Both the position numbers and the translations under genes were made by a program. Below, piece by piece: positions 2,143 to 17,408 of a stretch of DNA of 20,975 bases (the stretch's first letter is position 1; each line of letters begins with the position of its first letter). Source of the DNA: a virus. Location of the stretch: the UHGV virus genome UHGV-0216266, one strand, 5' to 3'. Under the pieces are notes generated by a model. That model saw nothing but the letters and a program-made list of their open reading frames with translations, made no database searches and was not told the origin of the DNA.

Positions 2143-3043
2143 CCGTTCCTCCGTTGGTTACGCTCCACTGCGTACATGATGCCGCCTGTGTTTTGTTCAG
2201 GACCACATCCGCCAGAGGAGAAGCCAGCTCCACACGCTGCACACCCTCAACATGCAGGGCGGCAAAGATGGCGCTACGGCGAATATCCCGACCAAGACGC
2301 GTCTGACTGGCGATGTACTTCTGCAGGCTGGCTTTTGCCGCTGCCATTACCGGCTCTGCTTCCGGTCCCGGATAGAGAAAAATGGTGGCTTCCACGCGAT
2401 ACGGGATGATTTCTGCGCTGCGAACCGTAAGACGGTCAGCCACCGGGCGGACGTTCTCACTGTTCAGAGCTTTTTCCACCACGTCCAGCAGGTCTTTTTC
2501 TGCAGTTCCATCGCCTTCGCGGCTAAGGACAGTCAGCACCACCTCTGCAGGTGCCGGGCTGGTTGCACTGGCATCCGCCACCCGACCGTCGGCGCTTCGG
2601 GCATGAAATTCATAAGCTGCAGTTGGCCCCGCAACTGAAAGCCCTTCAAAGGCTGCAGGCACACGCAGGCGTAACGCTTCATCGCTTTCCATCACAGCTG
2701 CAACGGGCGGCACAGCGTCATTATCAGCAGGCGTCACCGTCAGGCGTTTCACGTTGTAGTTGGCAGCGAGCTGGTCAAGATCGCTGCCCATCGCGTAAGC
2801 CACCATCACAGCCTGCGCGGCTTCGTTAATGCGCTGGCGCAGAAGCAACTCACGGTAAGCGTTCTCCTGCAGCAATTTGGTGACGGGTTCAGATTCCAGT
2901 TCCAGCGTGCGGATCACTGCTTCCTGCTCATCTTTCGGATGAAGCGCAACAAATTCGGCCTTGCGTTCGGCAAGCAGCGTCTCAAAGTCCGGCACATCCA
3001 CAATCTGCGGCGCAGGCAACTGCGAAAGGTCAATCACTGCCAT
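2135..3043 (-). CDS. J: Baseplate assembly protein (P2 gpJ-like)
   Basis: The track ORF extends to 3082, but the internal ATG at 3041-3043 (MAVIDLSQLPAP...) gives 302 aa, the size I recall for P2 gpJ, and overlaps the W stop at 3030-3032 by only 14 nt. Synteny W-J-I. Confidence 0.8.
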   Translation of the reverse strand: MAVIDLSQLPAPQIVDVPDFETLLAERKAEFVALHPKDEQEAVIRTLELESEPVTKLLQENAYRELLLRQRINEAAQAVMVAYAMGSDLDQLAANYNVKRLTVTPADNDAVPPVAAVMESDEALRLRVPAAFEGLSVAGPTAAYEFHARSADGRVADASATSPAPAEVVLTVLSREGDGTAEKDLLDVVEKALNSENVRPVADRLTVRSAEIIPYRVEATIFLYPGPEAEPVMAAAKASLQKYIASQTRLGRDIRRSAIFAALHVEGVQRVELASPLADVVLNKTQAASCTQWSVTNGGTDE

Positions 3044-3389
3044 TCTCTGCTCCTGTTGATACGGAAAGGGAAACAGGCACACCGTTATTACGCCGCCCGC
3101 TCAGCACCACCACCATTGAACCGTCAAAATTGCTGTTGATGGTGATGGAATCCAGCGTCATCCGTGGCTCCCAGCGACTCAGCGCCACATACACTGCCGA
3201 CATGACCTGCAGGCGTAATGCCGGATTTTGTGGCTGGTCTATCAGTGCCGACAGCAGGGAACCATATTCACGGCGAGCAATGCGGCTACCCTGCGGCGTC
3301 AGCAGAATGTCCCGCACCGACTGGCGCAGATGGTCAATATCAGTAATGACTTTGCCGCTGGTATTGTTCATCCCGCTATAAAGCGTCAT
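3030..3389 (-). CDS. W: Baseplate wedge protein (P2 gpW / GPW-gp25 family)
   Basis: 119-aa ORF. ATG at 3387-3389 overlaps the V stop (ATGA). Size and position match P2 W. Confidence 0.75.
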   Translation of the reverse strand: MTLYSGMNNTSGKVITDIDHLRQSVRDILLTPQGSRIARREYGSLLSALIDQPQNPALRLQVMSAVYVALSRWEPRMTLDSITINSNFDGSMVVVLSGRRNNGVPVSLSVSTGAENGSD

Positions 3390-3964
3390 ACCGGGCCTCC
3401 GGTTGTATCTCCGCCTTTCAGGACGCCAGTATGCTGATGCGCATCAACCACGATCCCGTTAGAACTCATCGCTCCGCCGCCCTGAGTAACGCCACCATTG
3501 ATCACCACTTCGCTGTTAATGCGCGTGCGGTCAGCCTCCAGTACAAACTCACTGGTTTTCATGGTGATGTTGTCAGCGGCCTCAATGACCATTGATTTGA
3601 TGCCCCTGACATACCAGCGCCCGGTGGCGGGTTCATATTCAAACCAGCTACCGTCAGGATGTTCTGTCACGCAGGCGTCCGCCGACGTCGACGGTGGTGC
3701 GAACTGATTCGAATAGACAGCGGGCAGCGCAAAGGCAGTCTCCAGATTGCCGCCCAGACTCAGCAGCACCACCTGCTCACCTTCTGATGGTTTCCACCAT
3801 GTGCGGGCATTACCCGCGCGCAGCGTCAGCCAGTTAATCCAGTTAGTTTCAAGGTCGCCCGTTTTCACCCGGCAAAGCCAGTTTGTCCTGTCCACTTCGG
3901 TGACTACCCCAGTGCGGATCAGGTTGGTGATAAGGCGCATGATTTCGGTTAATTGTGCGTTCAT
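3386..3964 (-). CDS. V: Baseplate spike/hub protein (P2 gpV-like)
   Basis: 192-aa ORF, ATG at 3962-3964. First gene after a non-coding gap that follows S, as for the P2 V operon. Protein is Gly/Thr-rich at the C-terminus, typical of spike proteins. Confidence 0.75.
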   Translation of the reverse strand: MNAQLTEIMRLITNLIRTGVVTEVDRTNWLCRVKTGDLETNWINWLTLRAGNARTWWKPSEGEQVVLLSLGGNLETAFALPAVYSNQFAPPSTSADACVTEHPDGSWFEYEPATGRWYVRGIKSMVIEAADNITMKTSEFVLEADRTRINSEVVINGGVTQGGGAMSSNGIVVDAHQHTGVLKGGDTTGGPV

Positions 3965-4009
3965 AGGGAAAGGTTGCCATCAGGGGAAGAAAGGCGGCAG
4001 TGCTGCAAC

Positions 4010-4029
4010 TTGTATCAGTGCTGATACAA
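4010..4029 (-). promoter_or_regulatory. Perfect 9+2+9 palindrome TTGTATCAG-TG-CTGATACAA containing TGT-N12-ACA; candidate late-activator (Ogr/B-type) site for the V operon
   Basis: Read directly at 4010-4029. TGT is 4011-4013 and ACA is 4026-4028. It lies in the 68-nt gap between the S stop (4033) and the V start (3964). P2-family late promoters carry a TGT-N12-ACA dyad (established knowledge). The centre is ~55 nt from the V ATG, which is closer than I would expect if the dyad is centred at -55 from the transcription start. Confidence 0.4.
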
Positions 4030-4032
4030 AAA

Positions 4033-4479
4033 TCACCCCGCCAGCCATTGCAGAATCATGTCGCGGGTCATTGCCTCAACATCATCATTTACACCCAGAA
4101 GGCGACGCTCTGCGTAACGGACCTCCGGTCCTTTGCGGCTGACGCGATCACGTAAGCCGTAGTGATGAACACGGGCAATGCGCTGTACCTTGCCTTCAAA
4201 CTGCACGCTGGCAGAGTCGGCGCTGGCGGCAGTTTTCAGGTATTTTGTGGTGCGCAGCTTTGTAAACATCTGACGTTTGATGCGCCCCTTTTTGCTGCGT
4301 GCTGTTACCCTGCGCGGCTCATAACTGCTGCCATCAGGATTGCGCTGCATCCTGATGTTCTGCTGCTGTGTCCGGCGCAGTTCCTGCGCCAGCTGGCGCA
4401 TCATGCGGCTTCTTGCGGCTGGCTCCAGATTCGCCAATAATGCACTCAGCCAGTTGTCCACCTTCTGCAGTTCATCCAC
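4033..4479 (-). CDS. S: Tail completion protein (P2 gpS-like)
   Basis: 148-aa ORF. GTG start at 4477-4479 overlaps the R stop at 4472-4474. Synteny R-S-V. Confidence 0.7.
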   Translation of the reverse strand: MDELQKVDNWLSALLANLEPAARSRMMRQLAQELRRTQQQNIRMQRNPDGSSYEPRRVTARSKKGRIKRQMFTKLRTTKYLKTAASADSASVQFEGKVQRIARVHHYGLRDRVSRKGPEVRYAERRLLGVNDDVEAMTRDMILQWLAG

Positions 4480-4924
4480 GTTTCACCGTCCACATTTCTT
4501 CAGGTTCATCAGGTTCCGCTACCGCTTCAACGTTCGACACACTGCCGTCAGTGCTGACCAGCACACGCTCCGTCAGTTGCAGGTTAAGGCTGATATCACA
4601 GACATCGTTGCGCAGAATATCCACCTCAAAGGTGAATAGCTTTTCCCGTAACGCCGGGTTATTGATGGCATCGGGCTGGTTATCCCGCAGCCACAGCAAA
4701 ACCGGGGCCATCAGCAGATTCTGGTCGCCGCTGAAATCCTCTATCACCACGTTCAGGGTATAGCGGTACTCCCATGACATGGAGCTGGCCCCCGTGGCAA
4801 CCAGCGAACCGTTATCCACAAACAGATGCAGTTTGTCCGGGTTATTGCGGACATAAGGCACTGCTTTATTGAGGGCGTGGCGCAGGGATTGTGGTTTGTT
4901 CACTGTTTCGCTCCTGACACGCAA
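4472..4924 (-). CDS. R: Tail completion protein (P2 gpR-like)
   Basis: 150-aa ORF. The track start codon is TTG (4922-4924) and there is no nearby in-frame ATG, so the start is uncertain. Follows the lysis cassette as in P2. Confidence 0.65.
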   Translation of the reverse strand: MRVRSETVNKPQSLRHALNKAVPYVRNNPDKLHLFVDNGSLVATGASSMSWEYRYTLNVVIEDFSGDQNLLMAPVLLWLRDNQPDAINNPALREKLFTFEVDILRNDVCDISLNLQLTERVLVSTDGSVSNVEAVAEPDEPEEMWTVKRG

Positions 4925-5156
4925 TAATCATGTCCACTTTGTCTGCACAGACCGCCCAGGCGGCCTCCGTTTCATCCAGCAATGCGTTCAGACCACCGTT
5001 AGTGCGTGGCGCTGCCTGCTCCAGCCGACACGGCGTCACTCGCGGACAACCACTGACGGTAACCTGCACCTCCGGTGAGTGCCGGACGTTCCCGCAGCCG
5101 GATAATGTCAGCAGGCAAAGGAGTATCAGCCCAGCGGCGTAAATCCTCGTTCTCAC
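4866..5156 (-). CDS. lysC: Outer-membrane lipoprotein spanin (o-spanin, LysC/Rz1-like)
   Basis: 96-aa ORF starting (GTG, 5154-5156) inside lysB in another frame and running 59 nt into R. N-terminus MRTRIYAAGLILLCLLTLSGC has a signal peptide plus lipobox (LSGC). Pro-rich C-terminus. Confidence 0.6.
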   Translation of the reverse strand: MRTRIYAAGLILLCLLTLSGCGNVRHSPEVQVTVSGCPRVTPCRLEQAAPRTNGGLNALLDETEAAWAVCADKVDMIIACQERNSEQTTIPAPRPQ

Positions 5157-5427
5157 GTTTCAGTTCCTCGATCCGGCGTTGTCGTTGTCTCAGCTGTGCG
5201 CTGGTCTGTTCTGCTTCGGCATAGAGCCGCGCCTGCTCCCGGTTATTGGTTTCAGTCAGAATGGACAGGCTGATAAGCTGGCTGTTGCTCTTTGCCAGTG
5301 CATGGCTTTTGCTCTGCAGCTCGTCTGCCTGCGTGCTGATGGTCTGGCTGGCATCAGCCAGCCGCCACGTCTGCCAGCCCAGCGCCGCCAGTAATAACGC
5401 CAGCACAACCAGCAGCAACCGGTTCAT
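4999..5427 (-). CDS. lysB: Inner-membrane spanin (i-spanin, LysB/Rz-like)
   Basis: 142-aa ORF, ATG at 5425-5427 overlapping the lysA stop (ATGA). N-terminal TM segment LLLVVLALLLAALGW followed by a charged, coiled-coil-like region (LRQRQRRIEELKRENEDLRR). Confidence 0.7.
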   Translation of the reverse strand: MNRLLLVVLALLLAALGWQTWRLADASQTISTQADELQSKSHALAKSNSQLISLSILTETNNREQARLYAEAEQTSAQLRQRQRRIEELKRENEDLRRWADTPLPADIIRLRERPALTGGAGYRQWLSASDAVSAGAGSATH

Positions 5428-5801
5428 GCTGCTACCTGTTGCGCCATCTGATTACGGGTGATCCAGAAGGCAATAACGGTCAGTAGATAAAAGACCAGGG
5501 TAATAGCCCACCCCGTCCAGGCGAGACTTACAACAATCAGCAATCGCATCACCCAACTGGTAAATACGTTTTCTTTTCGGGTAATTGTCTTCAGCAAAGA
5601 TGCCCTTAACTCCTGCCAGAGCGGACCATTCTTAATTAACGCAGCCAGTGCTACCGGAATTACCGCCCATGTCAGCAAACAGGCTACCCAAACGCCGGAC
5701 TCTGCCAGTACCGGAAAAATCCCCTGCGGATACACCATTGCTGCGATTAACAGCGCCATCCATAACATCAGAAACAGTCCGCTGATTAATTTCTTTTTCA
5801 T
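5424..5801 (-). CDS. lysA: LysA-like membrane protein (lysis accessory, possible antiholin)
   Basis: I prefer the ATG at 5799-5801 (MKKKLISGLFLMLWMALLIAAM..., 125 aa). It has a GGGAG Shine-Dalgarno and abuts the K stop at 5803-5805, whereas the track start at 5873 would overlap K by 70 nt. Multiple hydrophobic helices. Confidence 0.6.
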   Translation of the reverse strand: MKKKLISGLFLMLWMALLIAAMVYPQGIFPVLAESGVWVACLLTWAVIPVALAALIKNGPLWQELRASLLKTITRKENVFTSWVMRLLIVVSLAWTGWAITLVFYLLTVIAFWITRNQMAQQVAA

Positions 5802-5802
5802 T

Positions 5803-6315
5803 TCAGTTTGCTCCCTGTAAGCACCAGGCCATCTCCCGCGCACGGCGGTTATCCAGCCCCTGATTAAAAACACCTTTCACATAAACCCAGCGCGGCAACT
5901 GTCGGCACGCATCTGCCCAGCGCCGCTGATTGAGTAATTTCACCAGCGTGGAACTGCAGGCATTGCCCGTTCCCACGTTGAAGGCAAACGACACCGCAGC
6001 GTCATACACCTTCTGCGGCGGCTGTTGCTTCACACACCTTTCCAGCGCCCGCTCCACACGCAGCACGTTGGAGATCAGCCCTTCTGCTGCCTGTCGCTCC
6101 GTAATGGTTTTGCCGGGAATGACGCCTGACGTATTACCAATGCCGTCGGTCCAGACACCCGCGCTGCACTGATACGGCTGCAGACGACAACCTTCGTAAT
6201 CGGCAATCAGTTTCAGCCCCTCCACGGAGGTGTGAAGCTGCTGAAAACCCGGCAGCGTGGCAGCAATAGCCAGCACGGCCCCGACAAGGCAGCGTTTAAC
6301 GATTGATGGATTCAT
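5803..6315 (-). CDS. K: SAR endolysin (T4/P1 Lyz-type lysozyme, GH24-like)
   Basis: 170-aa ORF. N-terminal weakly hydrophobic Gly/Ala-rich segment containing Cys9 (KRCLVGAVLAIAATLPGF). Catalytic region YEGCRLQPYQCSAGVWTDGIGNT gives E41, C43, C50, T56, matching the E-x-C-x6-C-x5-T spacing I recall for P1 Lyz. Confidence 0.75.
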   Translation of the reverse strand: MNPSIVKRCLVGAVLAIAATLPGFQQLHTSVEGLKLIADYEGCRLQPYQCSAGVWTDGIGNTSGVIPGKTITERQAAEGLISNVLRVERALERCVKQQPPQKVYDAAVSFAFNVGTGNACSSTLVKLLNQRRWADACRQLPRWVYVKGVFNQGLDNRRAREMAWCLQGAN

Positions 6316-6511
6316 AGTCCTCCCGCGAGATCTGCCCGTCGCGCAGAAGCTGGTAGGCTTTGTGTTTGTAGTACCAGTTGATAGCCAGCATCAGCACACC
6401 AATCATCAGGCCGCCCAGCGTTGAGGCATCCTTGATGGACAAATCGCCCAGCCAGGCCAGCACGACGGCGATGCAATACGTGATAAAGGCGCTGATTCGC
6501 TCAAGCGTCAT
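6296..6511 (-). CDS. Y: Holin, probable pinholin (P2 gpY position)
   Basis: 71-aa ORF with two hydrophobic helices (ISAFITYCIAVVLAWLG, LGGLMIGVLMLAINWYY) and a charged C-terminus, immediately upstream of the endolysin. ATG at 6509-6511. Confidence 0.65.
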   Translation of the reverse strand: MTLERISAFITYCIAVVLAWLGDLSIKDASTLGGLMIGVLMLAINWYYKHKAYQLLRDGQISREDYESINR

Positions 6512-6514
6512 AAT

Positions 6515-6718
6515 TCAGTCCCATAGCTGGACGGTCTGCACGGTGGTGGTGGTCGGAATGTCCGGCAGCTCCACCTGCAGCCCGTGAGGTAAAAAGGGGC
6601 CGTATTCGGCAAGCCCCGGATTTGCCTTCAGTACCTGCTCCGTGACACCCTGCGTGCGCCCGTAATGACGCCAGCAAAGCGCGTCCACCGTGTCATACTG
6701 ATGCGCACGCACTTTCAT
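6515..6718 (-). CDS. X: Tail protein X (P2 gpX-like, LysM-like)
   Basis: 67-aa ORF, the same length as P2 X. ATG at 6716-6718 overlaps the L stop (TGATG). Between L and Y as in P2. Confidence 0.7.
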   Translation of the reverse strand: MKVRAHQYDTVDALCWRHYGRTQGVTEQVLKANPGLAEYGPFLPHGLQVELPDIPTTTTVQTVQLWD

Positions 6719-7182
6719 CAGATAAGCTCCACTGTGCAGTGCGGCGCATCCTGCACCCGGCTGATGGCCCAGCGGGCGTCACACCACAAATCACCGCTGG
6801 CTTCTGCCAGTTCTTCGCCCCGCTTCACACCGGATGCCGTGGCGTCATAGTCCTGGTAACGTTCGTTGAGCATGGCGCGTGCCCAGCAGTAAACCGCGTT
6901 GAAATAGTGCTGAATGCGCTCGCTTTTGCCGTCCAGTTGTTCCGCTGGGACTTCTGCCAGCGAGGCATACCCCAGCATCTGCTGGCGTCTGCGAAACTCA
7001 TACAGCTCTGCGTTGACCTCCGAAATTGCCGACAGCGCAACCTGCTTTAAACGCGGCTGCGTCACCGTGCCATCAGTGCGCATCACGCTGCGAAACTCCG
7101 ACAGGTCCACATCAGGCCAGAACGGCGTATTTCTGATGATTTCCGCCTGTTCCGGTGCCTGTTCTGGCGCAACAAACTTCAT
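6718..7182 (-). CDS. L: Head completion/stabilisation protein (P2 gpL-like)
   Basis: ATG at 7180-7182 (MKFVAPEQ...) is preceded by an AGGAGA Shine-Dalgarno. The track's GTG start at 7245 lacks one. Position between M and X. Confidence 0.7.
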   Translation of the reverse strand: MKFVAPEQAPEQAEIIRNTPFWPDVDLSEFRSVMRTDGTVTQPRLKQVALSAISEVNAELYEFRRRQQMLGYASLAEVPAEQLDGKSERIQHYFNAVYCWARAMLNERYQDYDATASGVKRGEELAEASGDLWCDARWAISRVQDAPHCTVELI

Positions 7183-7277
7183 GCTGCTTTCTCCTGAAAT
7201 AAAGGGCGGTGGACGGGGTTTTGATGTGGCAGTGCCTTTCGCCACCCCGTGCCGCCCGTGCGCGGGGGCACGTTCTG

Positions 7278-7928
7278 TCAGCGGCTGTCATTGCGCAGTC
7301 TGCGCTCCAGCTGCTGTTTGTCTTTTTTCACGCCACAGCGGGGATCGAGCTGTAACGCATGGTTGAGATGATTAAGGGCGGAAGCCGGATTGCTTTCACT
7401 CAGAACAGCGCCAATCGCTTTATGCAGACGCGCCCGTGACTGGTCCGGCATATCCAGACCGTCTGTCAGCTCCAGCGTCTGCAGCAACAGATCGGCATCA
7501 AAGCCGGTGGCGGCAAGCATTGCGCTCTGCGCTGCATCTGCCATTTCCTCTGCCAGTACGGTCTGCACATTGCGGTTACCCAGCGGCATCACCCAGCCAT
7601 GACGCAGGGCATGACGCCCGATCTCCAGCGCCCCGGCATAATCTCCGGCATCAATGCGCCACAGCATCACGTACATCAGCACGTCATCCTGTTGAGCGCC
7701 TCCGGCAGCCAGGACGCCCTCCGCCCAGGCGGCATATTTCGGCAGCAGCTCCACCTTTATTTCCGCTTTTTTGACCGTGGACTGAACGCCCTTGAGACGG
7801 CGGCGGTCTTCCGCCAGTTGCAGCAGCATCAGGTCATAGCCAGATGCGTGGCGAACGCTGCCGCCCTCGCGGGCGGCCTGTTCAGCCTGAACGCGCAGGC
7901 GATGCTGCCGTGCGGGACTCAGGCTCAT
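7278..7928 (-). CDS. M: Terminase small/endonuclease subunit (P2 gpM-like)
   Basis: 216-aa ORF, ATG at 7926-7928, directly after the N stop (7932-7934). Synteny O-N-M-L. Confidence 0.7.
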   Translation of the reverse strand: MSLSPARQHRLRVQAEQAAREGGSVRHASGYDLMLLQLAEDRRRLKGVQSTVKKAEIKVELLPKYAAWAEGVLAAGGAQQDDVLMYVMLWRIDAGDYAGALEIGRHALRHGWVMPLGNRNVQTVLAEEMADAAQSAMLAATGFDADLLLQTLELTDGLDMPDQSRARLHKAIGAVLSESNPASALNHLNHALQLDPRCGVKKDKQQLERRLRNDSR

Positions 7929-7931
7929 AGG

Positions 7932-8990
7932 TTACGCTCCGGCTTCTGCTGCAGCGGCGCTGAAATCGCCAATCTGGATGTTTTCCACCAGTGCGGCGCA
8001 GCGGTAGTCCTCAACCACATAGGCTTCGTTAACGGATTCAAAGTTTTCAATCCGGTCACGTTTCGGGTTGTCGATAACTGAACGGCGGCGGGTGTCTTCC
8101 TGCCAGTAGATGGACAGGTTATCCAGACGGGTGATTAGCAACGCATTCGGCGGGAAGAACGGCGCACGCACGGCCTGCAGGCCACCCATGCGTTTCTGAC
8201 TGATGATCATATCGGCAGCCAGTTTTTCACTGTTTTCCTGCTCTTTGTTGACCAGCGGGAAATACTTGTCAGACAGCAGTTCACGCCCGCAAATAACCAC
8301 CAGATCGTCATCGTCCTGGTAAACCACGTCGATAAGCTCATTGACGGCATCCATCACTACGGCGTCCAGGTTGGCATATTCGCCACCTTTCCCGACTTTC
8401 ACCGCACCCGGTGTAGTTTCACCGCCCGTGGTGGTGCTGCCCATGACGTGATCCGGTGCATCCTCACGGATTTTCTGCAGCCAGCCTTTATTCACATCCT
8501 GCAGCAGCGGGTTTTCGCTACGGTTGGAGGTTTTCGCACGCTTCACGCCGTTAAAGCCGATCATGATGCGGTCCAGTGCCTGACGTTTCACGATGGCGTC
8601 ACGGATACGCACCTGGAAATCCTGAAACTTCGCCCACAGGTCCAGCTTCGCGTAGGTCAGCACCGTGTCAAAGTTGGTCTGCTCGCATTTATATTCCACA
8701 TCGACCATCAGCGTCGGATCGACAGGTTCACGCTCTTTCGCGGTGGTATCAGTGGTTCCGGCAATGGTGCTGCCAACACCCAGCCCCAGCAACTGACCGG
8801 ACTGCTCAGTCACTGGCGTGACGTTAATCAGTGTCAGGAAAGCGGCGGACTGCTGGATCTGGTCTTCCAGCGTCTGCTGCACGGACGGTTCGACGGTGAA
8901 CTTGCTGGACAGTTCTTCAACTGCAACACCGTTCAGACGCGCCAGCTGCTGCAGGTAAGCGTTAAAAGCAAAGCGGGTATTCTTCTTCAT
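7932..8990 (-). CDS. N: Major capsid protein (P2 gpN-like)
   Basis: 352-aa ORF (P2 N is ~357 aa by memory), ATG at 8988-8990. Follows scaffold gene O. Confidence 0.8.
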   Translation of the reverse strand: MKKNTRFAFNAYLQQLARLNGVAVEELSSKFTVEPSVQQTLEDQIQQSAAFLTLINVTPVTEQSGQLLGLGVGSTIAGTTDTTAKEREPVDPTLMVDVEYKCEQTNFDTVLTYAKLDLWAKFQDFQVRIRDAIVKRQALDRIMIGFNGVKRAKTSNRSENPLLQDVNKGWLQKIREDAPDHVMGSTTTGGETTPGAVKVGKGGEYANLDAVVMDAVNELIDVVYQDDDDLVVICGRELLSDKYFPLVNKEQENSEKLAADMIISQKRMGGLQAVRAPFFPPNALLITRLDNLSIYWQEDTRRRSVIDNPKRDRIENFESVNEAYVVEDYRCAALVENIQIGDFSAAAAEAGA

Positions 8991-9006
8991 CGGGTTTTGT
9001 GCTCCA

Positions 9007-9840
9007 TCAGCAATTGGTCAGAGTGTCAGCGGGGGCGTTACCGCCTGTTGCACGCTGGCGGTAGTCCTGGCGGCTGTCTTCATGACTCAGCTTATCCACC
9101 AGTTCGTTAAAGGCGGCTTGTTGTGCCTGCAGGGCAGTCTCCATCTCAGACAGGCGTTCTTCCTGCTCAGACAGGAATTTTTCGGTGCGCGTGCTCAGGT
9201 TTTGCTGCTCAGTGGCGACCAGTTCCACGGCCTTATGCACATCAGAGAACCGTGCATCATCGGACTGCTCTTTTTTGGTGAACAGCGCCGTGACGCGGGC
9301 AAACAGGGACGGCTTGTCCTCCTGGACTTCTTCCAGTTCGATCACCGTTTCCTCTGCAGCGGTAAAAAGATTGGCGGGATTCTGCTTGCGGTTTGCCAGC
9401 GGGTTATGGGCTGCACTGGCGCTGAATGTCAGCATTTCCGTACCCAGACTGGCGGGATCATCAGTGGCAGCCAGGCCGACCAGGTAGGCTTTGCCCGTAT
9501 CAGCAAACTTCGGGCTGACTTCCATAGAGGTGAATAATTTCTGGCCTTTTTTCACCAGTTCCACCAAGGACTCCGTTGGCTCAACGTCGGCATACAGTGC
9601 CATCTTGCCTGCCAGCGGACCTTCCGTGATTTCTTCAGCAAACAGCGCCGTCACCTTGCCGTAGCGGTTAAAGGTGCTGTCCGGAAGATAAGACTTGATG
9701 TGCTCAAGGTTAATCAGCGCGGTGTACACCGCCGGATTGTAGCTGGCTGCCATCTGTTCCAGCCATTCACGCTGGATTTCGCGTCCGTCGGTAGTGGCAC
9801 CTTCCACCCCGATGCGAAAACGCTTTGCTTTCACTGTCAT
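9007..9840 (-). CDS. O: Capsid scaffolding protein (P2 gpO-like)
   Basis: 277-aa ORF, ATG at 9838-9840 with a GGAG Shine-Dalgarno. Acidic, coiled-coil-rich C-terminal half. Divergent from P across a 142-bp intergenic region. Confidence 0.8.
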   Translation of the reverse strand: MTVKAKRFRIGVEGATTDGREIQREWLEQMAASYNPAVYTALINLEHIKSYLPDSTFNRYGKVTALFAEEITEGPLAGKMALYADVEPTESLVELVKKGQKLFTSMEVSPKFADTGKAYLVGLAATDDPASLGTEMLTFSASAAHNPLANRKQNPANLFTAAEETVIELEEVQEDKPSLFARVTALFTKKEQSDDARFSDVHKAVELVATEQQNLSTRTEKFLSEQEERLSEMETALQAQQAAFNELVDKLSHEDSRQDYRQRATGGNAPADTLTNC

Positions 9841-9918
9841 GAGCCGTGCTCCGTTAGAAAAAACTTACTGGAGCCTTATGGTTACGGTGATGGGGGCAGT
9901 GAAACAATGCGCGGTATT

Positions 9919-9936
9919 TGTACCGACAACCACACA
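9919..9936. promoter_or_regulatory. TGT-N12-ACA dyad in the O/P divergent late-promoter region
   Basis: TGT at 9919-9921 and ACA at 9934-9936, the only such dyad inside the 142-bp O-P intergenic region. Its centre is ~87 nt from the O ATG and ~55 nt from the P ATG. Arm symmetry is weak beyond TGT/ACA, so a chance match is possible. Confidence 0.3.
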
Positions 9937-9982
9937 AACCGCAGGCGGGGAAAGCCTTCATTCAAGGCTGTAGGTTTGTGCC

Positions 9983-11749
9983 ATGAACACCACACTGACA
10001 CCCGCAGATCTCGATCCCCGTCGGCAGGCCATGCTGCTGTACTTTCAGGGATACCGCGTAGCCCGCATTGCTGAAATGCTGGGCGAGAAAGTTGCAACCG
10101 TTCACAGCTGGAAAAAACGCGACAAGTGGGGTGACTATGGGCCGCTGGATCAGATGCAGCTCACCACCGCCGCACGCTACTGCCAGCTCATTATGAAGGA
10201 GCACAAAGAAGGGAAAGATTTCAAAGAGATTGACCTGCTGGCGCGCCAGTCTGAGCGCCACGCGCGGATCGGCAAGTTTAACAATGGCGGCAACGAATCC
10301 GACTTAAACCCTAACGTCGCCAACCGCAACAAAGGCCCACGCCGTCAGCCGGAAAAGAATGTTTTCACCGATGAGCAGATTGAGAAGCTGGAAGAAATCT
10401 TCCATTCCTCCATGTTCAACTACCAGCGCCACTGGTGGGAAGCCGGAAAAACCAACCGCATCCGCAACCTGCTGAAGTCACGCCAGATCGGCGCGACCTT
10501 TTACTTTGCCCGTGAAGCCCTGATTGACGCCCTGCTGACCGGACGTAACCAGATTTTCCTTTCCGCCAGCAAGGCACAGGCCCACGTCTTTAAGCAGTAC
10601 ATCATCGACTTCGCCAAAGAAGTGGAGGTGGAGTTGAAAGGCGATCCGATGGTGCTTCCTAACGGGGCCACGCTTTACTTCCTCGGCACCAATGCCCGCA
10701 CGGCCCAGAGTTATCACGGCAACCTGTATCTGGATGAATATTTCTGGATACCGAAATTCCAGGAGCTGCGCAAAGTGGCTTCCGGTATGGCTATTCACAA
10801 GAAATGGCGACAAACCTATTTTTCCACGCCATCCAGCCTGACACACAGTGCTTATCCGTTCTGGTCCGGTGCGCTATTCAACCGTGGGCGCAACAAAGCA
10901 GATAAGGTGGACATCGACCTGTCCCACAGCAATCTGGCCCCCGGCCTGCTGTGCGCAGATGGGCAATACCGCCAGATTGTCACCGTGGAAGATGCAGTGC
11001 GCGGCGGATGTAACCTGTTCGACCTCGATCAGTTACGCATGGAGTACAGCCCGGACGAATACCAGAACCTGCTGATGTGCGAGTTTGTGGACGATCTCGC
11101 GTCTGTGTTCCCACTCAGCGAGCTGCAGGCGTGCATGGTGGACAACTGGGAAGTCTGGACCGACTTTCATGCACTGGCACTGCGCCCATTTGGCTGGCGC
11201 GAAGTGTGGATCGGTTATGACCCGGCGAAAGGTACGCAGAACGGCGACAGTGCCGGATGCGTGGTGGTGGCACCGCCAGCCGTGCCGGGCGGCAAGTTCC
11301 GCATTCTTGAGCGTCACCAGTGGCGCGGGATGGACTTTCGCGCCCAGGCTGACGCCATCAAAAAACTGACCGAACAGTACAACGTGACCTATATCGGCAT
11401 CGACTCAACCGGCGTTGGTCACGGGGTTTATGAGAACGTGAAAGCGTTCTTTCCTGCCGTCCGGGAGTTTGTCTACAACCCCAACGTTAAAAACGCCCTG
11501 GTACTCAAGGCCTACGACATTATCAGCCACCGCCGTCTGGAGTTTGACGCCGGGCACACCGACATTGCGCAGTCATTCATGGCAATCCGTCGCGCCACCA
11601 CCGCCAGTGGCAACCGCCCGACCTATGAAGCCAGCCGCAGCGAAGAAGCCAGCCATGCCGATCTGGCCTGGGCAACGATGCACGCACTGTTTAACGAACC
11701 GCTGCAGGGCGAATCCGCCAATACCAGCAATATTGTGGAGATTTTTTGA
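9983..11749 (+). CDS. P: Terminase large (ATPase) subunit (P2 gpP-like)
   Basis: 588-aa ORF (P2 P is ~590 aa by memory), ATG at 9983-9985. Its TGA stop overlaps the Q ATG (TGATG). Confidence 0.85.
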   Translation: MNTTLTPADLDPRRQAMLLYFQGYRVARIAEMLGEKVATVHSWKKRDKWGDYGPLDQMQLTTAARYCQLIMKEHKEGKDFKEIDLLARQSERHARIGKFNNGGNESDLNPNVANRNKGPRRQPEKNVFTDEQIEKLEEIFHSSMFNYQRHWWEAGKTNRIRNLLKSRQIGATFYFAREALIDALLTGRNQIFLSASKAQAHVFKQYIIDFAKEVEVELKGDPMVLPNGATLYFLGTNARTAQSYHGNLYLDEYFWIPKFQELRKVASGMAIHKKWRQTYFSTPSSLTHSAYPFWSGALFNRGRNKADKVDIDLSHSNLAPGLLCADGQYRQIVTVEDAVRGGCNLFDLDQLRMEYSPDEYQNLLMCEFVDDLASVFPLSELQACMVDNWEVWTDFHALALRPFGWREVWIGYDPAKGTQNGDSAGCVVVAPPAVPGGKFRILERHQWRGMDFRAQADAIKKLTEQYNVTYIGIDSTGVGHGVYENVKAFFPAVREFVYNPNVKNALVLKAYDIISHRRLEFDAGHTDIAQSFMAIRRATTASGNRPTYEASRSEEASHADLAWATMHALFNEPLQGESANTSNIVEIF

Positions 11750-12783
11750 TGGGAAAGAGTAAGAAGAACCGCGCTGCGGCGACGAAACAGATCCAGCTTA
11801 AAAGTCAAACTACAGCCGAAGCATTCAGCTTCGGCGATCCCGTTCCTGTTCTGGACCGCCGAGAATTACTGGACTATGTGGAATGCGTACAGATGGACCG
11901 TTGGTATGAGCCGCCCGTCAGCTTTGACGGACTGGCGCGCACCTTCCGCGCTGCAGTGCATCACAGTTCCCCGATTGCAGTAAAGTGCAACATTCTGACC
12001 AGTACCTACATCCCTCACCCGCTGCTCAGCCAGCAGGCTTTTTCGCGTTTTGTGCAGGACTATCTGGTATTTGGCAATGCCTATCTGGAGAAACGCACGA
12101 ACCGCTTCGGTGAAGTGATCGCCCTTGAACCTGCGCTGGCAAAATACACCCGACGCGGATTAGACCTGGATACCTACTGGTTTGTGCAATACGGTATGAC
12201 AACCCAGCCGTATCAGTTCACGAAAGGCAGCATTTTTCATCTGATGGAACCGGATATTAATCAGGAGATCTACGGCCTGCCCGGTTATCTTTCTGCCATT
12301 CCGTCAGCCCTGCTCAACGAGTCCGCCACGCTGTTCCGCCGTAAGTATTACATCAACGGCAGCCATGCAGGCTTCATCATGTATATGACTGACGCCGCGC
12401 AGAACCAGGAGGATGTGAACAACCTCCGCAACGCGATGAAAAGCGCCAAAGGTCCGGGCAACTTCCGCAACCTGTTTATGTATTCGCCCAACGGTAAAAA
12501 AGACGGCATCCAGATCATCCCACTGTCTGAGGTTGCAGCAAAGGATGAATTTCTGAACATTAAGAACGTGAGCCGCGATGACATGATGGCAGCACACCGC
12601 GTACCGCCGCAGATGATGGGCATTATTCCTAACAATACCGGCGGCTTTGGTGATGTGGAAAAAGCCAGCCGCGTCTTTGTCCGTAATGAGTTAATACCGC
12701 TACAAAAAAGACTCGAAGAACTAAATGAGTGGTTGGGGGAAAAGGTTATTTCTTTTGAACCATATAAATTTGACATTGAATAA
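11749..12783 (+). CDS. Q: Portal protein (P2 gpQ-like)
   Basis: ATG at 11749-11751 (MGKSKKNRAA..., 344 aa, matching the P2 Q length by memory). The track ORF begins one codon earlier at TTG. Co-oriented with and overlapping P. Confidence 0.85.
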   Translation: MGKSKKNRAAATKQIQLKSQTTAEAFSFGDPVPVLDRRELLDYVECVQMDRWYEPPVSFDGLARTFRAAVHHSSPIAVKCNILTSTYIPHPLLSQQAFSRFVQDYLVFGNAYLEKRTNRFGEVIALEPALAKYTRRGLDLDTYWFVQYGMTTQPYQFTKGSIFHLMEPDINQEIYGLPGYLSAIPSALLNESATLFRRKYYINGSHAGFIMYMTDAAQNQEDVNNLRNAMKSAKGPGNFRNLFMYSPNGKKDGIQIIPLSEVAAKDEFLNIKNVSRDDMMAAHRVPPQMMGIIPNNTGGFGDVEKASRVFVRNELIPLQKRLEELNEWLGEKVISFEPYKFDIE

Positions 12784-12827
12784 AAGAAATAACCACCACC
12801 AGTCACACATTGGTAATGTGTGACTGG

Positions 12828-13373
12828 TTAGCGTCCCAATCTAAAGTTTAATTTTTCTCTTGGAGTCATTGCACGCCCAATAGCCCCATCTAATAAATGA
12901 CTATTTTTCTCTAAATGTTCACGCGCCCATGGCTGTAAGTTGAAAGCAAAACCGTAGATCATATCCCCAACACTGGTGGCTCTATAAGTAATCCCCTTAG
13001 CCACAAGTCCCCCCATGACCCCATCCTCAGGCCCACACATAAGTGAATTAACACCTTCGGTAATATAAGACTTTAAATATCCTTTTTCTTCTGCTGTTAG
13101 CTTCTCAAGGTAGGAAGTGCGTACCTTCTTAGCCTGCCTTTCACCAAGTAAGTCATAGAAAGAGAGATAGACTCTTGCAACTAAATAAGATACAGACAGT
13201 AAAAATGCAGGTCCAATAAAAATCCTATACTCATTACGAAAGCCATCAACAGCCACTTTTACTGCCAAAGAGTCTGGCAGAAAAAGTATAAGACCTAAAA
13301 CACATGTAATAGCCACAAGAAATGCTGCAGGTACTTTTCGAAAAAACTCTGCAACTCCAGTTATAACGTCCAT
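12828..13373 (-). CDS. Hypothetical two-TM membrane protein (accessory gene between portal gene and cos)
   Basis: 181-aa ORF in visibly AT-rich DNA (~37-40% GC on hand-counted lines, against ~55% in flanking phage genes). ATG at 13371-13373 with a GGAGG Shine-Dalgarno 10 nt upstream. Two N-terminal hydrophobic helices (AAFLVAITCVLGLILFL, IFIGPAFLLSVSYLVARVYL) and a ~110-aa soluble C-terminal domain. No family recognised. Confidence 0.6.
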   Translation of the reverse strand: MDVITGVAEFFRKVPAAFLVAITCVLGLILFLPDSLAVKVAVDGFRNEYRIFIGPAFLLSVSYLVARVYLSFYDLLGERQAKKVRTSYLEKLTAEEKGYLKSYITEGVNSLMCGPEDGVMGGLVAKGITYRATSVGDMIYGFAFNLQPWAREHLEKNSHLLDGAIGRAMTPREKLNFRLGR

Positions 13374-13462
13374 TTTGTCTATACCTCCAACAGCGCTAAA
13401 AAGTATTTTGAAATTCTACCTCATAACTATGCCAAAAGCACTGCGTCCCCCATCAGCGCGCG

Positions 13463-13481
13463 CTCGTATCCCCGCCACGCC
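13463..13481 (-). other. Candidate cos (cohesive-end) site
   Basis: The minus strand reads GGCGTGGCGGGGATACGAG. The first 13 nt match the 19-nt cohesive end I recall for phage 186 (GGCGTGGCGGGGAAAGCAT; P2 has GGCGAGGCGGGGAAAGCAC). Orientation points toward Q, as expected. Confidence 0.5.
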
Positions 13482-13526
13482 TGCCCGCTTTATGTAGTGG
13501 TTTTCATGCAGGTGCATAATCTACGC

Positions 13527-13550
13527 AAAAGCCCGCCAGTTCTGGCGGGC
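13527..13550 (-). terminator. GC-rich hairpin (GCCCGCCAG / CTGGCGGGC) with a U4 tail on the minus strand
   Basis: Perfect 9-bp inverted repeat at 13531-13550. The minus-strand transcript would end ...hairpin-UUUUGCG. No U-tract on the plus strand. Confidence 0.4.
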
Positions 13551-13823
13551 CTTAGCAAAAACGATCCTCAAACGATCATGCAATCTCATGCAGCATAGAC
13601 ATGCACAGACGAGTAAAGCGAATCGGACTTTACGCAAGGTGAACTCCTCAGCGGGCATAATCAGTATGTCGGAAGATCTCTAAAAATGAATAATTCGGTT
13701 AACAGGTATGCTTACAAAAGCATATATTTGATTAAAAATCATGTAAGGGGGAGGATCTCAAACTGAATCGCCACGGGTTTTACAAACTTCGATAGTCTCT
13801 CTAACGTTTCGGCTGAGGTCAAA

Positions 13824-14249
13824 ATGAAAAGCTTTTACGTATTAATTTTAATTCTGGTTGCAAGCTTTGTTAGCGTCCCAGTTCAGGCGGTAACAGCTAA
13901 AAACTATGAGAAAGGAACTAAAGCTCAACAGAAATCAATATCTTACCTTTCATGTGCATTCTATGGCAGTAGCACACAATTAGATCCTAGCTACACGGAG
14001 CAAGTACCTACAGCCGATATCAAGATATTACAGAAAGCAGCTTACCACGCTTACAACGATGCGCTCTCATACTTTGGCTATGAGGAACCAGATCACGAAC
14101 AACGCATAATTGATTATGCTGAATTTGTGGCGTCGCAAGAAGCTGTGTTATGGGATAAGCCGGGAATGAATGGAAAGCAGGTAACACTAATTGCTCGTTC
14201 TCTCTACAATGAGAGTAACTGTAACTTGTTACTGGACTCAATTAAGTAG
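13824..14249 (+). CDS. Hypothetical secreted/periplasmic protein (accessory gene at the old/tin-equivalent position)
   Basis: 141-aa ORF in AT-rich DNA. ATG at 13824 with a GAGG Shine-Dalgarno 5 nt upstream. N-terminal signal peptide MKSFYVLILILVASFVSVPVQA with an AXA-type cleavage motif (VQA/VT). Mature ~119 aa with two Cys. Convergent with the DinI-like operon. No family recognised. Confidence 0.6.
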   Translation: MKSFYVLILILVASFVSVPVQAVTAKNYEKGTKAQQKSISYLSCAFYGSSTQLDPSYTEQVPTADIKILQKAAYHAYNDALSYFGYEEPDHEQRIIDYAEFVASQEAVLWDKPGMNGKQVTLIARSLYNESNCNLLLDSIK

Positions 14250-14408
14250 GAAAAAGATGGTATTTTGCCCGTAGTTTCAACCTTAATCTCCAAACCTGTC
14301 GCAGAACGGGCGTTCACTCATCAAATAAACGCCACACCTAACGCCTCACTGTACTCGTTGTTCAACCTTGCTGACGCCAGAAGCAATTTCAGACGCCAGC
14401 AACGTTTC

Positions 14409-14642
14409 TTAATGCAGCCAGCTGTCGTCTTCCCACACCTTCTGCATAATTTTCATCACTTGTTTTCTTTCTTCGTCCAGTTGCAGTCCGGTCAGTTCCA
14501 CACCGTTAGAGCTACCTTTGCGGATACGAATTACCGTTTTGGGATACAGGGGGCGCAGATTGCGGTAAAGCTCGGATTCAAGGGCGTCCAGTGTAGACTG
14601 GCTAATCTTCTGCTCTTTATCGATCATTATTTCAATGCGCAT
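14409..14642 (-). CDS. DinI-family protein (resembles the DinI-like C-terminal part of the 186 Tum antirepressor)
   Basis: ATG at 14640-14642 (MRIEIMIDKEQKISQSTLDALESELYRNLRPLYPKTVIRIRKGSSNGVELTGLQLDEERKQVMKIMQKVWEDDSWLH, 77 aa) with a GAGGTG Shine-Dalgarno. Similar to E. coli DinI (MRIEVTIAK...ETWESADDWFV) as recalled from memory. Confidence 0.7.
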   Translation of the reverse strand: MRIEIMIDKEQKISQSTLDALESELYRNLRPLYPKTVIRIRKGSSNGVELTGLQLDEERKQVMKIMQKVWEDDSWLH

Positions 14643-14652
14643 AAAAGTCACC

Positions 14653-14841
14653 TCAGCTGATGACATCCATTGAGCGGTTGTATTCGTGGGTTCTGATTTT
14701 TGCCATGAGTTCATCTGTCAGTTCAGAAACCCACTGCAGGGCCAGCCCCTTCTCTTCATCACTACACTCACTAGCCGCTACAAGCTTAAGAAAAAAATCA
14801 ATGCGCTGGAGCTTCAAAGACTCCAAAAAATAGTCCTGCAT
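14653..14841 (-). CDS. Small acidic protein, first gene of the LexA-controlled operon (possible Tum N-terminal-like module)
   Basis: 62-aa ORF. ATG at 14839-14841 preceded by GGAGG. Stop 10 nt upstream of the DinI-like start. Directly downstream of the LexA-box promoter. Confidence 0.55.
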   Translation of the reverse strand: MQDYFLESLKLQRIDFFLKLVAASECSDEEKGLALQWVSELTDELMAKIRTHEYNRSMDVIS

Positions 14842-14881
14842 CTTTCCTCCTATAACACCAAAGCAATACTGTATACATAAC

Positions 14882-14925
14882 CACTGTTTATATTTACAGT
14901 ATATAATAATCTTACTGATGTAAAA
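14882..14925 (-). promoter_or_regulatory. SOS (LexA-box) promoter
   Basis: Plus 14882-14901 cactgtttatatttacagta matches the LexA consensus TACTGT(AT)4ACAGTA, with CTGT-N8-ACAG exact at 14884-14899. On the minus strand a -10 TATACT (plus 14898-14903) overlaps the box, and a -35-like TTTTAC (plus 14920-14925) sits 16 nt away. A second half-site CTGT is at 14869-14872. Confidence 0.6.
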
Positions 14926-14993
14926 CGTTTTTTTACGTTCATCGGCCTGATATGCCTGGTATTATTAAGAGCACGAATTGTTAACCCGCGTAA

Positions 14994-17408
14994 TTAATAC
15001 AGGTTCCGCCACTTATCATCTTCCTTCAGACGCTGGTTCCGATAGAAGATACGCAGGCCTGCTCCTGACGGAATACTGCCACCGCGAAGGAGTAAATCTA
15101 CCTCTTTCTCGCTGCCATCAAATCCTCTGGACTTCAGTTCATAGACGAGCTGCTGTCGTTGATGGTCTGTAATTCGCTGTTTGTAGTTTCTACGCCGTTT
15201 CGGTTTCACCAGGCGTAACCTTGCAGCCAGTTCCCGGCGCTCTTTTTTGTTCATACTGTGCAGAAAATCGTGCAACTCCTTGTCATCCATGCGGGTAATA
15301 TCCGTTCTGGTGTCCCCATCAGCTGATTTATCTTTCTCCTGTTGGTTCAAATTTTCAGCAAGGGGACAGTTATTGCCACGAGTCCAAGGGGCGCAAGCGC
15401 CCTGGTCGGCTGCCGCCTCCTGAACGTCAACGGCTTTACGAACCATTTTCCACTTCACTGCATGAGTGCAGATCTTGCCCTCTGCAATGGGTGACCAGAT
15501 GCCATAAATACGAATGCCGTGATCGCCATAGGCGGTCGGCTCTTCGTTGATTTCATAAGCGGTTCTGATGAGGTGATATTTACGGGGAACCAGTACGCCG
15601 CCCTGCTTCATGATGTAGGTGGCAAAACAACCAGCATCAGCAGCAGCCAGAATGGCATCAAGACGCGGGTTATCCAGTACCGGCGCACCTGCTTTTTTGT
15701 CACCCTGTTGCCTTGCCGCCTGACCAGCCAGCAAGCGAAGTTCACGGTAAGCCTGACGCCCCGGAATACCAAAGAAGCGGAATTGCTGAACACGATGCAG
15801 AGACGCCCAGGCATTCACGTATTCAGCGTTATCACGCAGAGATTTACCCGTTTCCTTGCTGATCTCGCCAGCCAGACCACGACCGTCAATGTTCTTACTG
15901 ATATATTTCGCGATGTAGCTTGTCGGCGTTCCTTTGCGCGGGTTAATCAACTCAGACTTAAAGCGCGGCCCAGTGTTATTGCCCAGCTCCTCGCGGTCTT
16001 CACGGATGGCAAACTTACGCAGTAATGCAGTGATGGCACGGCGGTCTTTTTTGCGCATGAAACACAACAGGTGCCAGTGAACTGTGCCATCATGATGCGG
16101 CTCAGCCACCCGCACGCCATACCAGCGCAACCCGGCTTTGTGCATCGCCTTACGAAATGCAGCAAACATGCCGACCAGATAATCGCTGCTTTGTCTTACC
16201 GTCGCGTTTGTCCAGGTCGGGTTTGGTCTGCCGTTATTTAGCGTGGAATGGAAACGCGACGGACAGGTGATAGTGTAGAAAACGGCGCAGTCACCGCGCA
16301 TTTCCGCGATAAGCTCCAGACCTTTAACACAGGCCATCATCTCATTGCGGCGATGCGCAGGGTTGCTGCTGCTGGCGTTTACCACATCCTCCATGTCCAG
16401 CGTGTCGCCGTCTTCGTTCACCAGTTCATGAGAACGGAAAAACTCCAGCGACTTACGGCGCTGCTCACGTCTATGCATCACGGCTTCATAGCTGACATAA
16501 GGAGATGCTTTTTTGCTGACCAGGCAAACAGCGCGCAACTGCTCTTCCCGCCATTCGCAACGCATCTTCCATAATTTCCGATACCACCAGTCGGCGCACA
16601 ACATACGCGCCAGCGAACCCGGAATGAGTTCATAGGGCACGGGTTTACGGCGGTTTCTTTTCCGACGGAGTTGCTCAAACGCAGGTGGGATGACATCCAG
16701 ACGCAGGGTTTCCGCTGCCACCTTTTCCCATGTCTTGCGGATTTCTTCTGGCTTAACGTCATCGGTGGCATACAAATCACCACAAGCTGCATCAAGGCAC
16801 ATACTCATATGCGCAGCTACCAGGGTGGACAGGCGTTTCACCTGATCCTGACTCATTTCAGGCAGGATCAGCAGGCCGTCCAGCCCTTCATGGCTTGCCA
16901 TAAAGCGAAAAGATGCAGATAGCTGACTGTCGCGTACATGCTCCAGTCGTTCCAGACATGGCTTAATCGTCTCACGTAAATAGCGGGAATAAGCCTTTGG
17001 CCTGCCCAGGCTGCTGAAGTATTCAATACGTTGCATCAGCGGCTTGCTGATATGGGAAGGCTGGGCGTTGACGTCCGCCAGAATGACCATGTCTGAATTA
17101 AAACGCTGCTGCTCATGCGCCAGCTTTGCCCGGCTAATGAGCTTATCCTGCTCCATTTCGCGCTGGACAGGATCACGTGATTCATTAAAGAAATAACGCT
17201 CCCAGACCTGATCACTCAGTGCCTCGCGGCGCAACTGTTCCTGCTCGTTATCGGCAGCGTACAGAGTGATCAGGTTTGAAAGCGTAGAAACCGGCGCAAC
17301 TTCCGCCGGGTCCAGATAAGGGTTAATGGCCTTTTTCGTGCTGTTCCATGAGAATGCTGCGGCAGCCTCGTTAAAGCCGCAGCAGTTGTTCATATCGGCA
17401 TGACTCAT
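14994..17408 (-). CDS. A: Replication initiation endonuclease (P2 gpA-like rolling-circle initiator)
   Basis: 804-aa ORF. ATG at 17406-17408 overlaps the Dam stop (ATGA). Contains the His-hydrophobic-His motif VHWHLL typical of HUH-type initiators. Large size and position next to the early region match P2 A / 186 A. Confidence 0.8.

Follow-up and report, generated by a model that had tools for sequence, protein, structure and literature searches.

SieB became known through genetics decades ago, and the proteins of P22 and lambda are the founding members of the Pfam family PF14163. A 2024 paper on P22 SieA still terms SieB 'less well-understood'. In the presence of P22 SieB, the macromolecular synthesis of superinfecting P22-like phages ceases midway in the lytic cycle (PMC10883804), and Esc, which is made from the same P22 gene, inhibits SieB and protects P22 itself (PMC10002423). 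In P2-like phages, the interval between gpA and gpQ beside the cohesive-end site (cos) is an anti-phage hotspot (Rousset et al. 2022, PMC9122126), which in P2 carries old and tin (PMC9122126) and which was confirmed by Vassallo et al. 2022 (PMC9519451). Here we describe a gene that belongs to both settings, found in a stretch of 20,975 nucleotides (nt) of the virus genome UHGV-0216266, referred to as the window. The open reading frame (ORF) at 12828..13373 on the minus strand encodes a protein of 181 amino acids (aa) that belongs to the SieB family PF14163, and the gene is a self-contained single-gene cargo in the portal-proximal arm of the P2 gpA-gpQ hotspot.

The match of the 181-aa protein to PF14163 (SieB, 'Super-infection exclusion protein B') has an expectation value (E) of 4.5e-25 and 88.4 bits at a gathering cut-off of 26, protein residues 20-157 being aligned with model positions 2-146/147; lambda SieB (184 aa) and P22 SieB (192 aa) match the same model with E 1e-29 and E 4.3e-29, respectively. 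Profile-profile alignment (hhalign) of the window subfamily with 43 lambdoid-type SieBs gave a probability of 90.5% and E 1.4e-6 over 110 columns, which take in the membrane hairpin together with the N-terminal half of the C-terminal domain. The top match of the AlphaFold model among the predicted viral structures of BFVD (Foldseek) was P22 SieB (Q38660, probability 0.99). Pairwise similarity is weak, with 22% identity and E 0.006 for lambda SieB and no match to P22 SieB in BLASTP; homology to the lambdoid SieBs nevertheless follows from the shared Pfam model taken together with the profile-profile and structural matches. An earlier note, written from the letters of this DNA and a list of its ORFs, had offered the SieB family as a guess, and the Pfam, hhalign and Foldseek results bear that guess out. 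The protein is also 100% identical to RefSeq WP_021548667.1, annotated as 'superinfection exclusion B family protein', in Escherichia coli MB06234.

The ORF (ATG start, 181 codons, TAA stop at 12828-12830 in the ORF list of the window) is a real gene and not a chance reading frame, because its product has hundreds of homologues (best E 1e-113) and its alleles combine saturated synonymous divergence (proportion of synonymous differences, pS, 0.71-0.96) with a non-synonymous distance of only 0.13-0.35. The gene is under purifying selection, and the ratio of non-synonymous to synonymous substitution rates (dN/dS) is ~0.06 for the closest allele pair with computable dS. A profile search of 1.84 billion representative proteins recovered 2154 clusters (50% identity) at E <=1e-3, and of the 150 relatives listed, almost all have lengths of 160-190 aa. 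With the 181-aa protein as query, PADLOC-DB v2.0.0 returned 0 families at E up to 1, PHROGs and NCBIfam returned no match, and a PDB sequence search returned chance-level matches only (old yellow enzyme, E ~0.17). A class II holin with two transmembrane helices was considered and set aside: in Pfam, SieB alone passes, and the locus is not a lysis cassette, the holin (PF16080) and lysozyme of related P2-like prophages being located in the late region and not here.

With P22 and lambda SieB the window protein shares its size, an N-terminal segment, two hydrophobic helices and a C-terminal domain starting with LTxxE, and the lambdoid genes are likewise prophage single genes placed antisense or convergent to a lytic operon. 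They differ in that identity is only ~20%, in that the last ~45 residues of the window subfamily (GFAFNLQPWAREYLE...LLDG...PMTP) have no counterpart in the lambdoid SieBs, and in the genomic site, which is the P2 cos hotspot for the window gene and the N-ral region for lambdoid sieB. Among sequenced phages, these last ~45 residues are shared with SPbeta YopH only. YopH (178 aa, PF14163; in RefSeq also 'superinfection exclusion B family protein') is the closest phage relative in INPHARED, with 27.8% identity over 92% and E 4e-14, and shares the C-terminal motif F-x-[YF]-N-[IL]-Q-P-W-A-R-x-Y-L, which the lambdoid SieBs lack; it differs from the window protein in its Gram-positive host, in the phage that carries it, a large siphovirus, and in the position of its gene within the yop operon. 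Membrane abortive effectors of the lambda RexB type share a functional logic only, as small prophage inner-membrane proteins that halt the infected cell, and no sequence or family relationship to RexB was detected (Pfam, PADLOC, PHROGs, NCBIfam). RexB requires a separate sensor, RexA, whereas the window protein would hold sensor and effector in one polypeptide.

The AlphaFold (AF2) model was built on a 66-sequence alignment spanning the whole family and has a mean predicted local distance difference test score (pLDDT) of 89.5 and a predicted template modelling score (pTM) of 0.65; with a shallow alignment of close homologues, the pLDDT of the C-terminal domain was <50. All codon coordinates that follow are on the minus strand. 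The model begins with an N-terminal helix at residues 2-12 (codons 2-13, 13335..13370), a segment in which F11, R12 and K13 are nearly invariant in the subfamily, followed by transmembrane helix 1 (TM1) at residues 16-31 with pLDDT >85 (codons 14-32, 13278..13334) and by a short loop helix at residues 34-39. A single long helix at residues 43-90 then comprises transmembrane helix 2 (TM2; codons 50-71, 13161..13226), after which the chain is rich in lysine and arginine, and the predicted cytoplasmic stalk into which TM2 extends up to residue 90. Codons 93-147 (12933..13097) encode a winged-helix-like, predicted cytoplasmic domain with the motifs LTxEEKGYL, DGVMxGL and GFAFNLQPW, modelled as a helix (residues 94-104), a strand (residues 110-113), a helix in the place of a putative recognition helix (residues 118-125) and a beta hairpin (residues 129-137 and 141-146); C-terminal helices occupy residues 148-180 (148-156, 158-161 and 171-180). 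Kyte-Doolittle hydropathy over 19 residues peaks at 2.71 for residues 14-32 and at 1.66 for residues 51-69. As both peaks are helical in the model, the layout first read from the translation, two N-terminal transmembrane helices ahead of a soluble C-terminal domain, is upheld.

Four lysine or arginine residues lie within 15 residues after TM2, the conserved pair R12-K13 precedes TM1 and the net charge of the loop is zero; the flanking basic residues favour a topology in which both ends of the protein are cytoplasmic. The predicted periplasmic loop measures ~16 residues, and residues 72-181, which hold the bulk of the conserved mass, are predicted to be cytoplasmic. This distribution bears on exclusion at the level of entry, in which the protein would block DNA injection or translocation and spare the cell, like P22 SieA, T4 Imm and HK97 gp15. 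A small prophage-encoded protein predicted to sit in the inner membrane, from a family named 'superinfection exclusion', would suit such a role, and DNA entry is the stage at which many membrane proteins of prophage cargo act (PMC10883804). So short a loop and so much conserved cytoplasmic mass would, however, be a poor fit to contact with an injection apparatus, and P22 and lambda SieB act post-entry, midway in the lytic cycle; we hold an entry block to be unlikely.

The positions conserved throughout the family are P33, L92, L100 and L123, none of them of a catalytic type, and the putative recognition helix (GVMGGLVA, residues 118-125) is glycine-rich and hydrophobic, without basic residues. 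Because the conserved residues are non-catalytic and this helix is of such a composition, the model argues for a C-terminal domain that is a binding or sensing module rather than an enzyme or a classical DNA reader. A winged-helix DNA-binding regulator of the MarR/ArsR type was rejected, as the protein matches no such sequence family and has no basic recognition helix. A hypervariable 'sensor' region was rejected as well, divergence being fairly even among the alleles of P2-like phages; conservation is lowest in the stalk and highest in TM1 and the winged-helix domain.

The resemblance of the C-terminal domain to MarR/ArsR-type regulators would also suit a membrane cargo that serves no defence, be it a lysogenic-conversion factor with an effect on the physiology of the host envelope, a winged-helix regulator tethered to the membrane or a modulator of the induction or lysis of the prophage itself. 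The lack of a PADLOC match is in keeping with this, as is the finding of Rousset et al. that, of the hotspot systems they cloned, only about one third were active (PMC9122126). Homology to bona fide SieB, a hotspot enriched in defence and homologues that adjoin defence-type genes elsewhere speak for defence instead, and a recognition helix without basic residues would be atypical for DNA reading; a role outside defence is in our judgement improbable.

From family membership we infer a function in exclusion or abortive infection. We favour, with reasonable though not high confidence and by analogy with P22 SieB, a mechanism in which the cytoplasmic domain senses a phage product and the N-terminal helix and hairpin shut down the membrane, so that infection aborts. 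In this scheme the prophage would express the SieB-like protein in the lysogen, where it would be an inner-membrane protein whose N- and C-terminus are both cytoplasmic; upon infection by a heterologous phage, the cytoplasmic domain would recognise a phage product of the lytic cycle; the N-terminal helix and hairpin of the protein, which would probably act as an oligomer, would then perturb the membrane; and macromolecular synthesis would halt mid-cycle, aborting the infection as described for P22 SieB.

The oligomer and the part played by the N-terminus are suggested by Esc. P22 esc is annotated in frame from sieB codon 25, and because Esc lacks the first 24 residues yet neutralises SieB, the active form of SieB is probably an oligomer in which the N-terminal helix and the start of TM1 are needed for killing. 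Esc lacks the segment of P22 SieB that is the counterpart of the N-terminal helix of the window protein. An internal start of the Esc type was not found in the window gene: no in-frame ATG follows the start until codon 112, and neither the GTG at codon 20 nor the TTG/GTG codons at 36 and 40 are preceded by a Shine-Dalgarno sequence. As there is no such start, the self-immunity of the carrying phage, if needed, would be achieved by other means. The Esc-type start is P22-specific and not family-defining, and its absence is compatible with SieB membership.

A narrower version concerns the clade marked by GFAFNLQPWAREYL, a motif shared with SPbeta YopH; the clade occurs widely, in Gammaproteobacteria, marine metagenomes, islands and cassette arrays. 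Its members might each be a stand-alone sensor-effector made of one protein, in which the tethered winged-helix domain would recognise a mid-cycle product, which could for example be a replication or packaging nucleoprotein, and would gate a membrane-collapsing oligomeric hairpin. We regard this version as speculative and rather unlikely.

The gene lies between the portal gene (gpQ homologue, 11746..12783, plus strand; PF04860 E 2.4e-18; RefSeq 'phage portal protein'), which bounds the hotspot on one side and faces the sieB-like gene in convergent orientation, and the cos site. The replication endonuclease gene (gpA homologue, 14994..17408, minus strand; RefSeq annotation) forms the other boundary. 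The cos 19-mer, GGCGTGGCGGGGATACGAG, recognised by its similarity to the cos sites of 186 (15/19 matches) and P2 (14/19), is found at 13463..13481 on the minus strand, 89 nt upstream of the sieB-like ATG, and recurs without a mismatch, in a corresponding position, in Citrobacter, Scandinavium and 10 IMG/VR loci. It is part of a cos block common to P2-like phages (~13455..13606; megablast to 47 phage records, and alignment). Within 12700-14300, this block alone is conserved in sequenced P2-like phages (Fels-2, RE2010 and others), and its conservation ends ~8 nt to the portal side of the 19-mer, at the edge of the variable slot. The spacing from portal to cos is 679 nt in the window, filled by the 181-aa ORF, compared with 167 nt in P2 (cosL 1-19, tQ 160-181, Q from 187; annotated genome) and 176 nt in 186, both without a gene. 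The earlier note had put the distance at ~690 bp and had given gene-free intervals of within ~200 bp for P2 and 186; measurement agrees with both, and the ribosome-binding site GGAGG that it had assigned to the 181-aa ORF is present at 13384..13388 (minus strand; read from the sequence), 10 nt 5' of the ATG.

Closeness to cos, with a start only 89 nt away, and the encoded winged-helix-like domain might suggest a packaging or virion role, for instance that of a membrane-tethered accessory factor binding cos. The functional conserved cos block, however, lies on the opposite side of the 19-mer; the gene is absent from P2, from 186, from all P2-like phages in INPHARED and from ~98% of closely related E. 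coli prophages; and homologues occur in non-phage chromosomal contexts and in the Bacillus phage SPbeta. This distribution essentially excludes a packaging or virion role, which we consider exceedingly improbable.

The sieB-like gene looks like a self-contained transcription unit. A terminator of its transcript, a 14-bp hairpin followed by a U-rich tail, was found by a terminator scan at 12798..12828 on the minus strand (free energy, dG, -25.9 kcal/mol; z -5.95), between the convergent portal and sieB-like genes. A GC-rich hairpin (GCCCGCCAG...CTGGCGGGC) followed by UUUU at 13527..13551 on the minus strand (dG -23.4 kcal/mol, z -5.0), overlooked by the terminator scan, is likely to terminate the transcript from the gpA/DinI side immediately ahead of cos. 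It is the gene's own terminator and this isolating terminator upstream that set it apart as a separate unit. A candidate promoter of its own is marked by the -10-like hexamer TAGAAT at 13413..13418 (minus strand), spotted by eye and without a good -35; the Scandinavium allele has TAGAAT at the same position, the Citrobacter allele TACACT, and a consensus promoter scan found no full sigma-70 site upstream on the gene's strand. We infer that the prophage expresses the gene in the lysogen. An Rfam search of 12500-15000 found nothing.

The sieB-like gene is present in 21 of 5426 complete E. coli genomes, always chromosomal and always at >=99% identity. The cos block is present in 1278 E. coli genomes and >=80% of the whole window in 925, and the gene is found in ~2% of closely related E. 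coli prophages. Megablast and tblastn searches of 50,697 phage records (INPHARED) found it in no sequenced P2-like phage. Its GC content is 40.3%, compared with 52.2% for the window, and homologues remain at ~40-42% GC even in a 63%-GC Pseudomonas locus; the low GC of the gene and of its homologues points to horizontal transfer.

Diverged alleles occupy the same slot in Scandinavium (78% identity) and Citrobacter (67%), 85-86 nt from the identical cos 19-mer, and the order gpA-cos-sieB-portal was found in 11 of 11 IMG/VR viral contigs that encode relatives (48-100% identity). Because diverged alleles are found in the same slot, the gene is a long-standing slot occupant in one P2-like lineage and not a one-off insertion. 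The most diverged allele of a P2-like phage (48% identity) is that of IMG/VR contig 3300006946_000075 (locus L032), in which the portal is 75% identical, cos has 2 mismatches and the same slot is retained. In the loci checked, the sieB allele was always more diverged than the adjoining portal gene.

The two arms of the hotspot assort independently, as is seen from two E. coli combinations: GW-AmxH19 has the gpA-arm genes of the window, with three unrelated hypothetical genes in the portal-cos slot, and DETEC-P881 has the same sieB gene together with different gpA-arm genes. The second cargo gene of the window, in the gpA arm (141 aa; 13824..14249, plus strand; phrog_7437 E 4e-99; 40% GC), encodes a protein with a signal-peptide-like N-terminus, MKSFYVLILILVASFVSVPVQA, and no Pfam or PADLOC match, and is also found in GW-AmxH19 beside the different portal-side cassette. 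That cassette (locus L020, 1171-3365, minus strand), encoding proteins of 368, 142 and 215 aa without Pfam or PADLOC match, is itself candidate hotspot cargo, and the gpA-arm cargo of DETEC-P881 (locus L021, 5400-6457, minus strand) encodes hypothetical proteins of 280 aa and 71 aa without family matches. In the Scandinavium P2-like prophage, a gene for AIPR (abortive infection phage resistance, PF10592) lies gpA-side of cos (locus L012, 5794-7581, minus strand), so that its two arms carry two candidate defences, AIPR and the 78%-identical sieB allele. Adjoining gpA in the window are a DinI-like gene (PF06183, E 1.3e-22; a 77-aa version in RefSeq) and a 62-aa phrog_698 gene (14409-14841, minus strand); this pair recurs in many hotspot loci in the accessible part of the published table and seems to be backbone and not variable cargo.

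Distant members of the subfamily (50-57% identity) are found in other contexts, namely a Vibrio island that also carries HipA and a fragment of an integrase, a small islet in Pseudomonas, and Acidihalobacter, where a DUF4145 gene adjoins. A homologue with 53% identity was found in a long array of small genes, all on one strand (locus L014, 1-15300; GCA_052884555.1) with DpnII-MboI, SduA_C (Shedu-type), HEPN_RiboL-PSP and bPH_2 domains, which looks like an integron-cassette array or a defence island. A two-gene system was rejected, because the genes beside the homologues differ from one context (Vibrio, Pseudomonas, Acidihalobacter, cassette array) to the next. As no neighbour recurs throughout, the SieB-like protein most likely works alone.

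Among the complete E. coli genomes in the collection, the best match to the whole window is ~97%, and none is exact. E. coli MB06234 (locus L001), the only E. coli record identical across 12700-14300, lacks window positions 1075-10852 (9.8 kb), and its terminase, tail-fibre and tape-measure genes are pseudogenised; the sieB region is intact. That the gene is kept 100% identical in so degraded a prophage, and that a membrane hairpin could be toxic, might point to a toxin-like or addiction membrane protein by which the prophage is stabilised or cells that have lost it are killed. Retention of this kind would be expected equally for a useful defence gene, however, and no adjoining antitoxin-like gene or RNA was found, the neighbours being variable, Rfam returning nothing and no small ORF overlapping; a toxin of this sort is very improbable.

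Old and Tin of P2 are the nearest counterparts by location: their genes are non-essential, variably present and phage-excluding cargo of the same cos-adjacent hotspot. Old is an ATPase-nuclease and Tin is soluble, and both are unrelated to the window protein; cos separates the two sites, old and tin being in the gpA arm and the window gene in the portal arm, where P2 and 186 have no gene. The P2 locus catalogue in Table S5 of Rousset et al. 2022 includes WP_021548667 as 'SieB' (PMC9122126), and the accessible part of that table gives 'SieB' at least 14 times and WP_021548667 at least 10 times; 'SieB' is not among the systems evaluated, which are given in their Table S2 (PMC9122126). A literature search found no paper with an experiment on this SieB subfamily. 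The finding is thus already known as to family, hotspot and catalogued accession. The earlier note had presented the gene as an insertion relative to P2 and 186; the gene and its slot were confirmed, and the novelty was overstated, the hotspot being published and the protein already listed and named in RefSeq. The function was overstated too, exclusion or abortive infection being deduced from the family. What goes beyond the catalogue is that the portal-side arm swaps its cargo independently of the gpA arm, that the subfamily is a stable resident there across genera, and that a confident structural model is at hand.

For the prophage, the result amounts to the correct annotation of an ordinary cargo gene. 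For the P2-like phages, it makes the portal-proximal side of cos a second arm of a known hotspot, with an exchange of cargo of its own. For the SieB family, a subfamily that is short, strongly conserved, widespread, confidently modelled and apparently free of partners is a convenient candidate for studies of mechanism. If the one-protein sensor-effector reading of the GFAFNLQPWAREYL clade were true, it would offer a way into SieB killing, which reviews describe as poorly understood, and would add a family that is missing from PADLOC.

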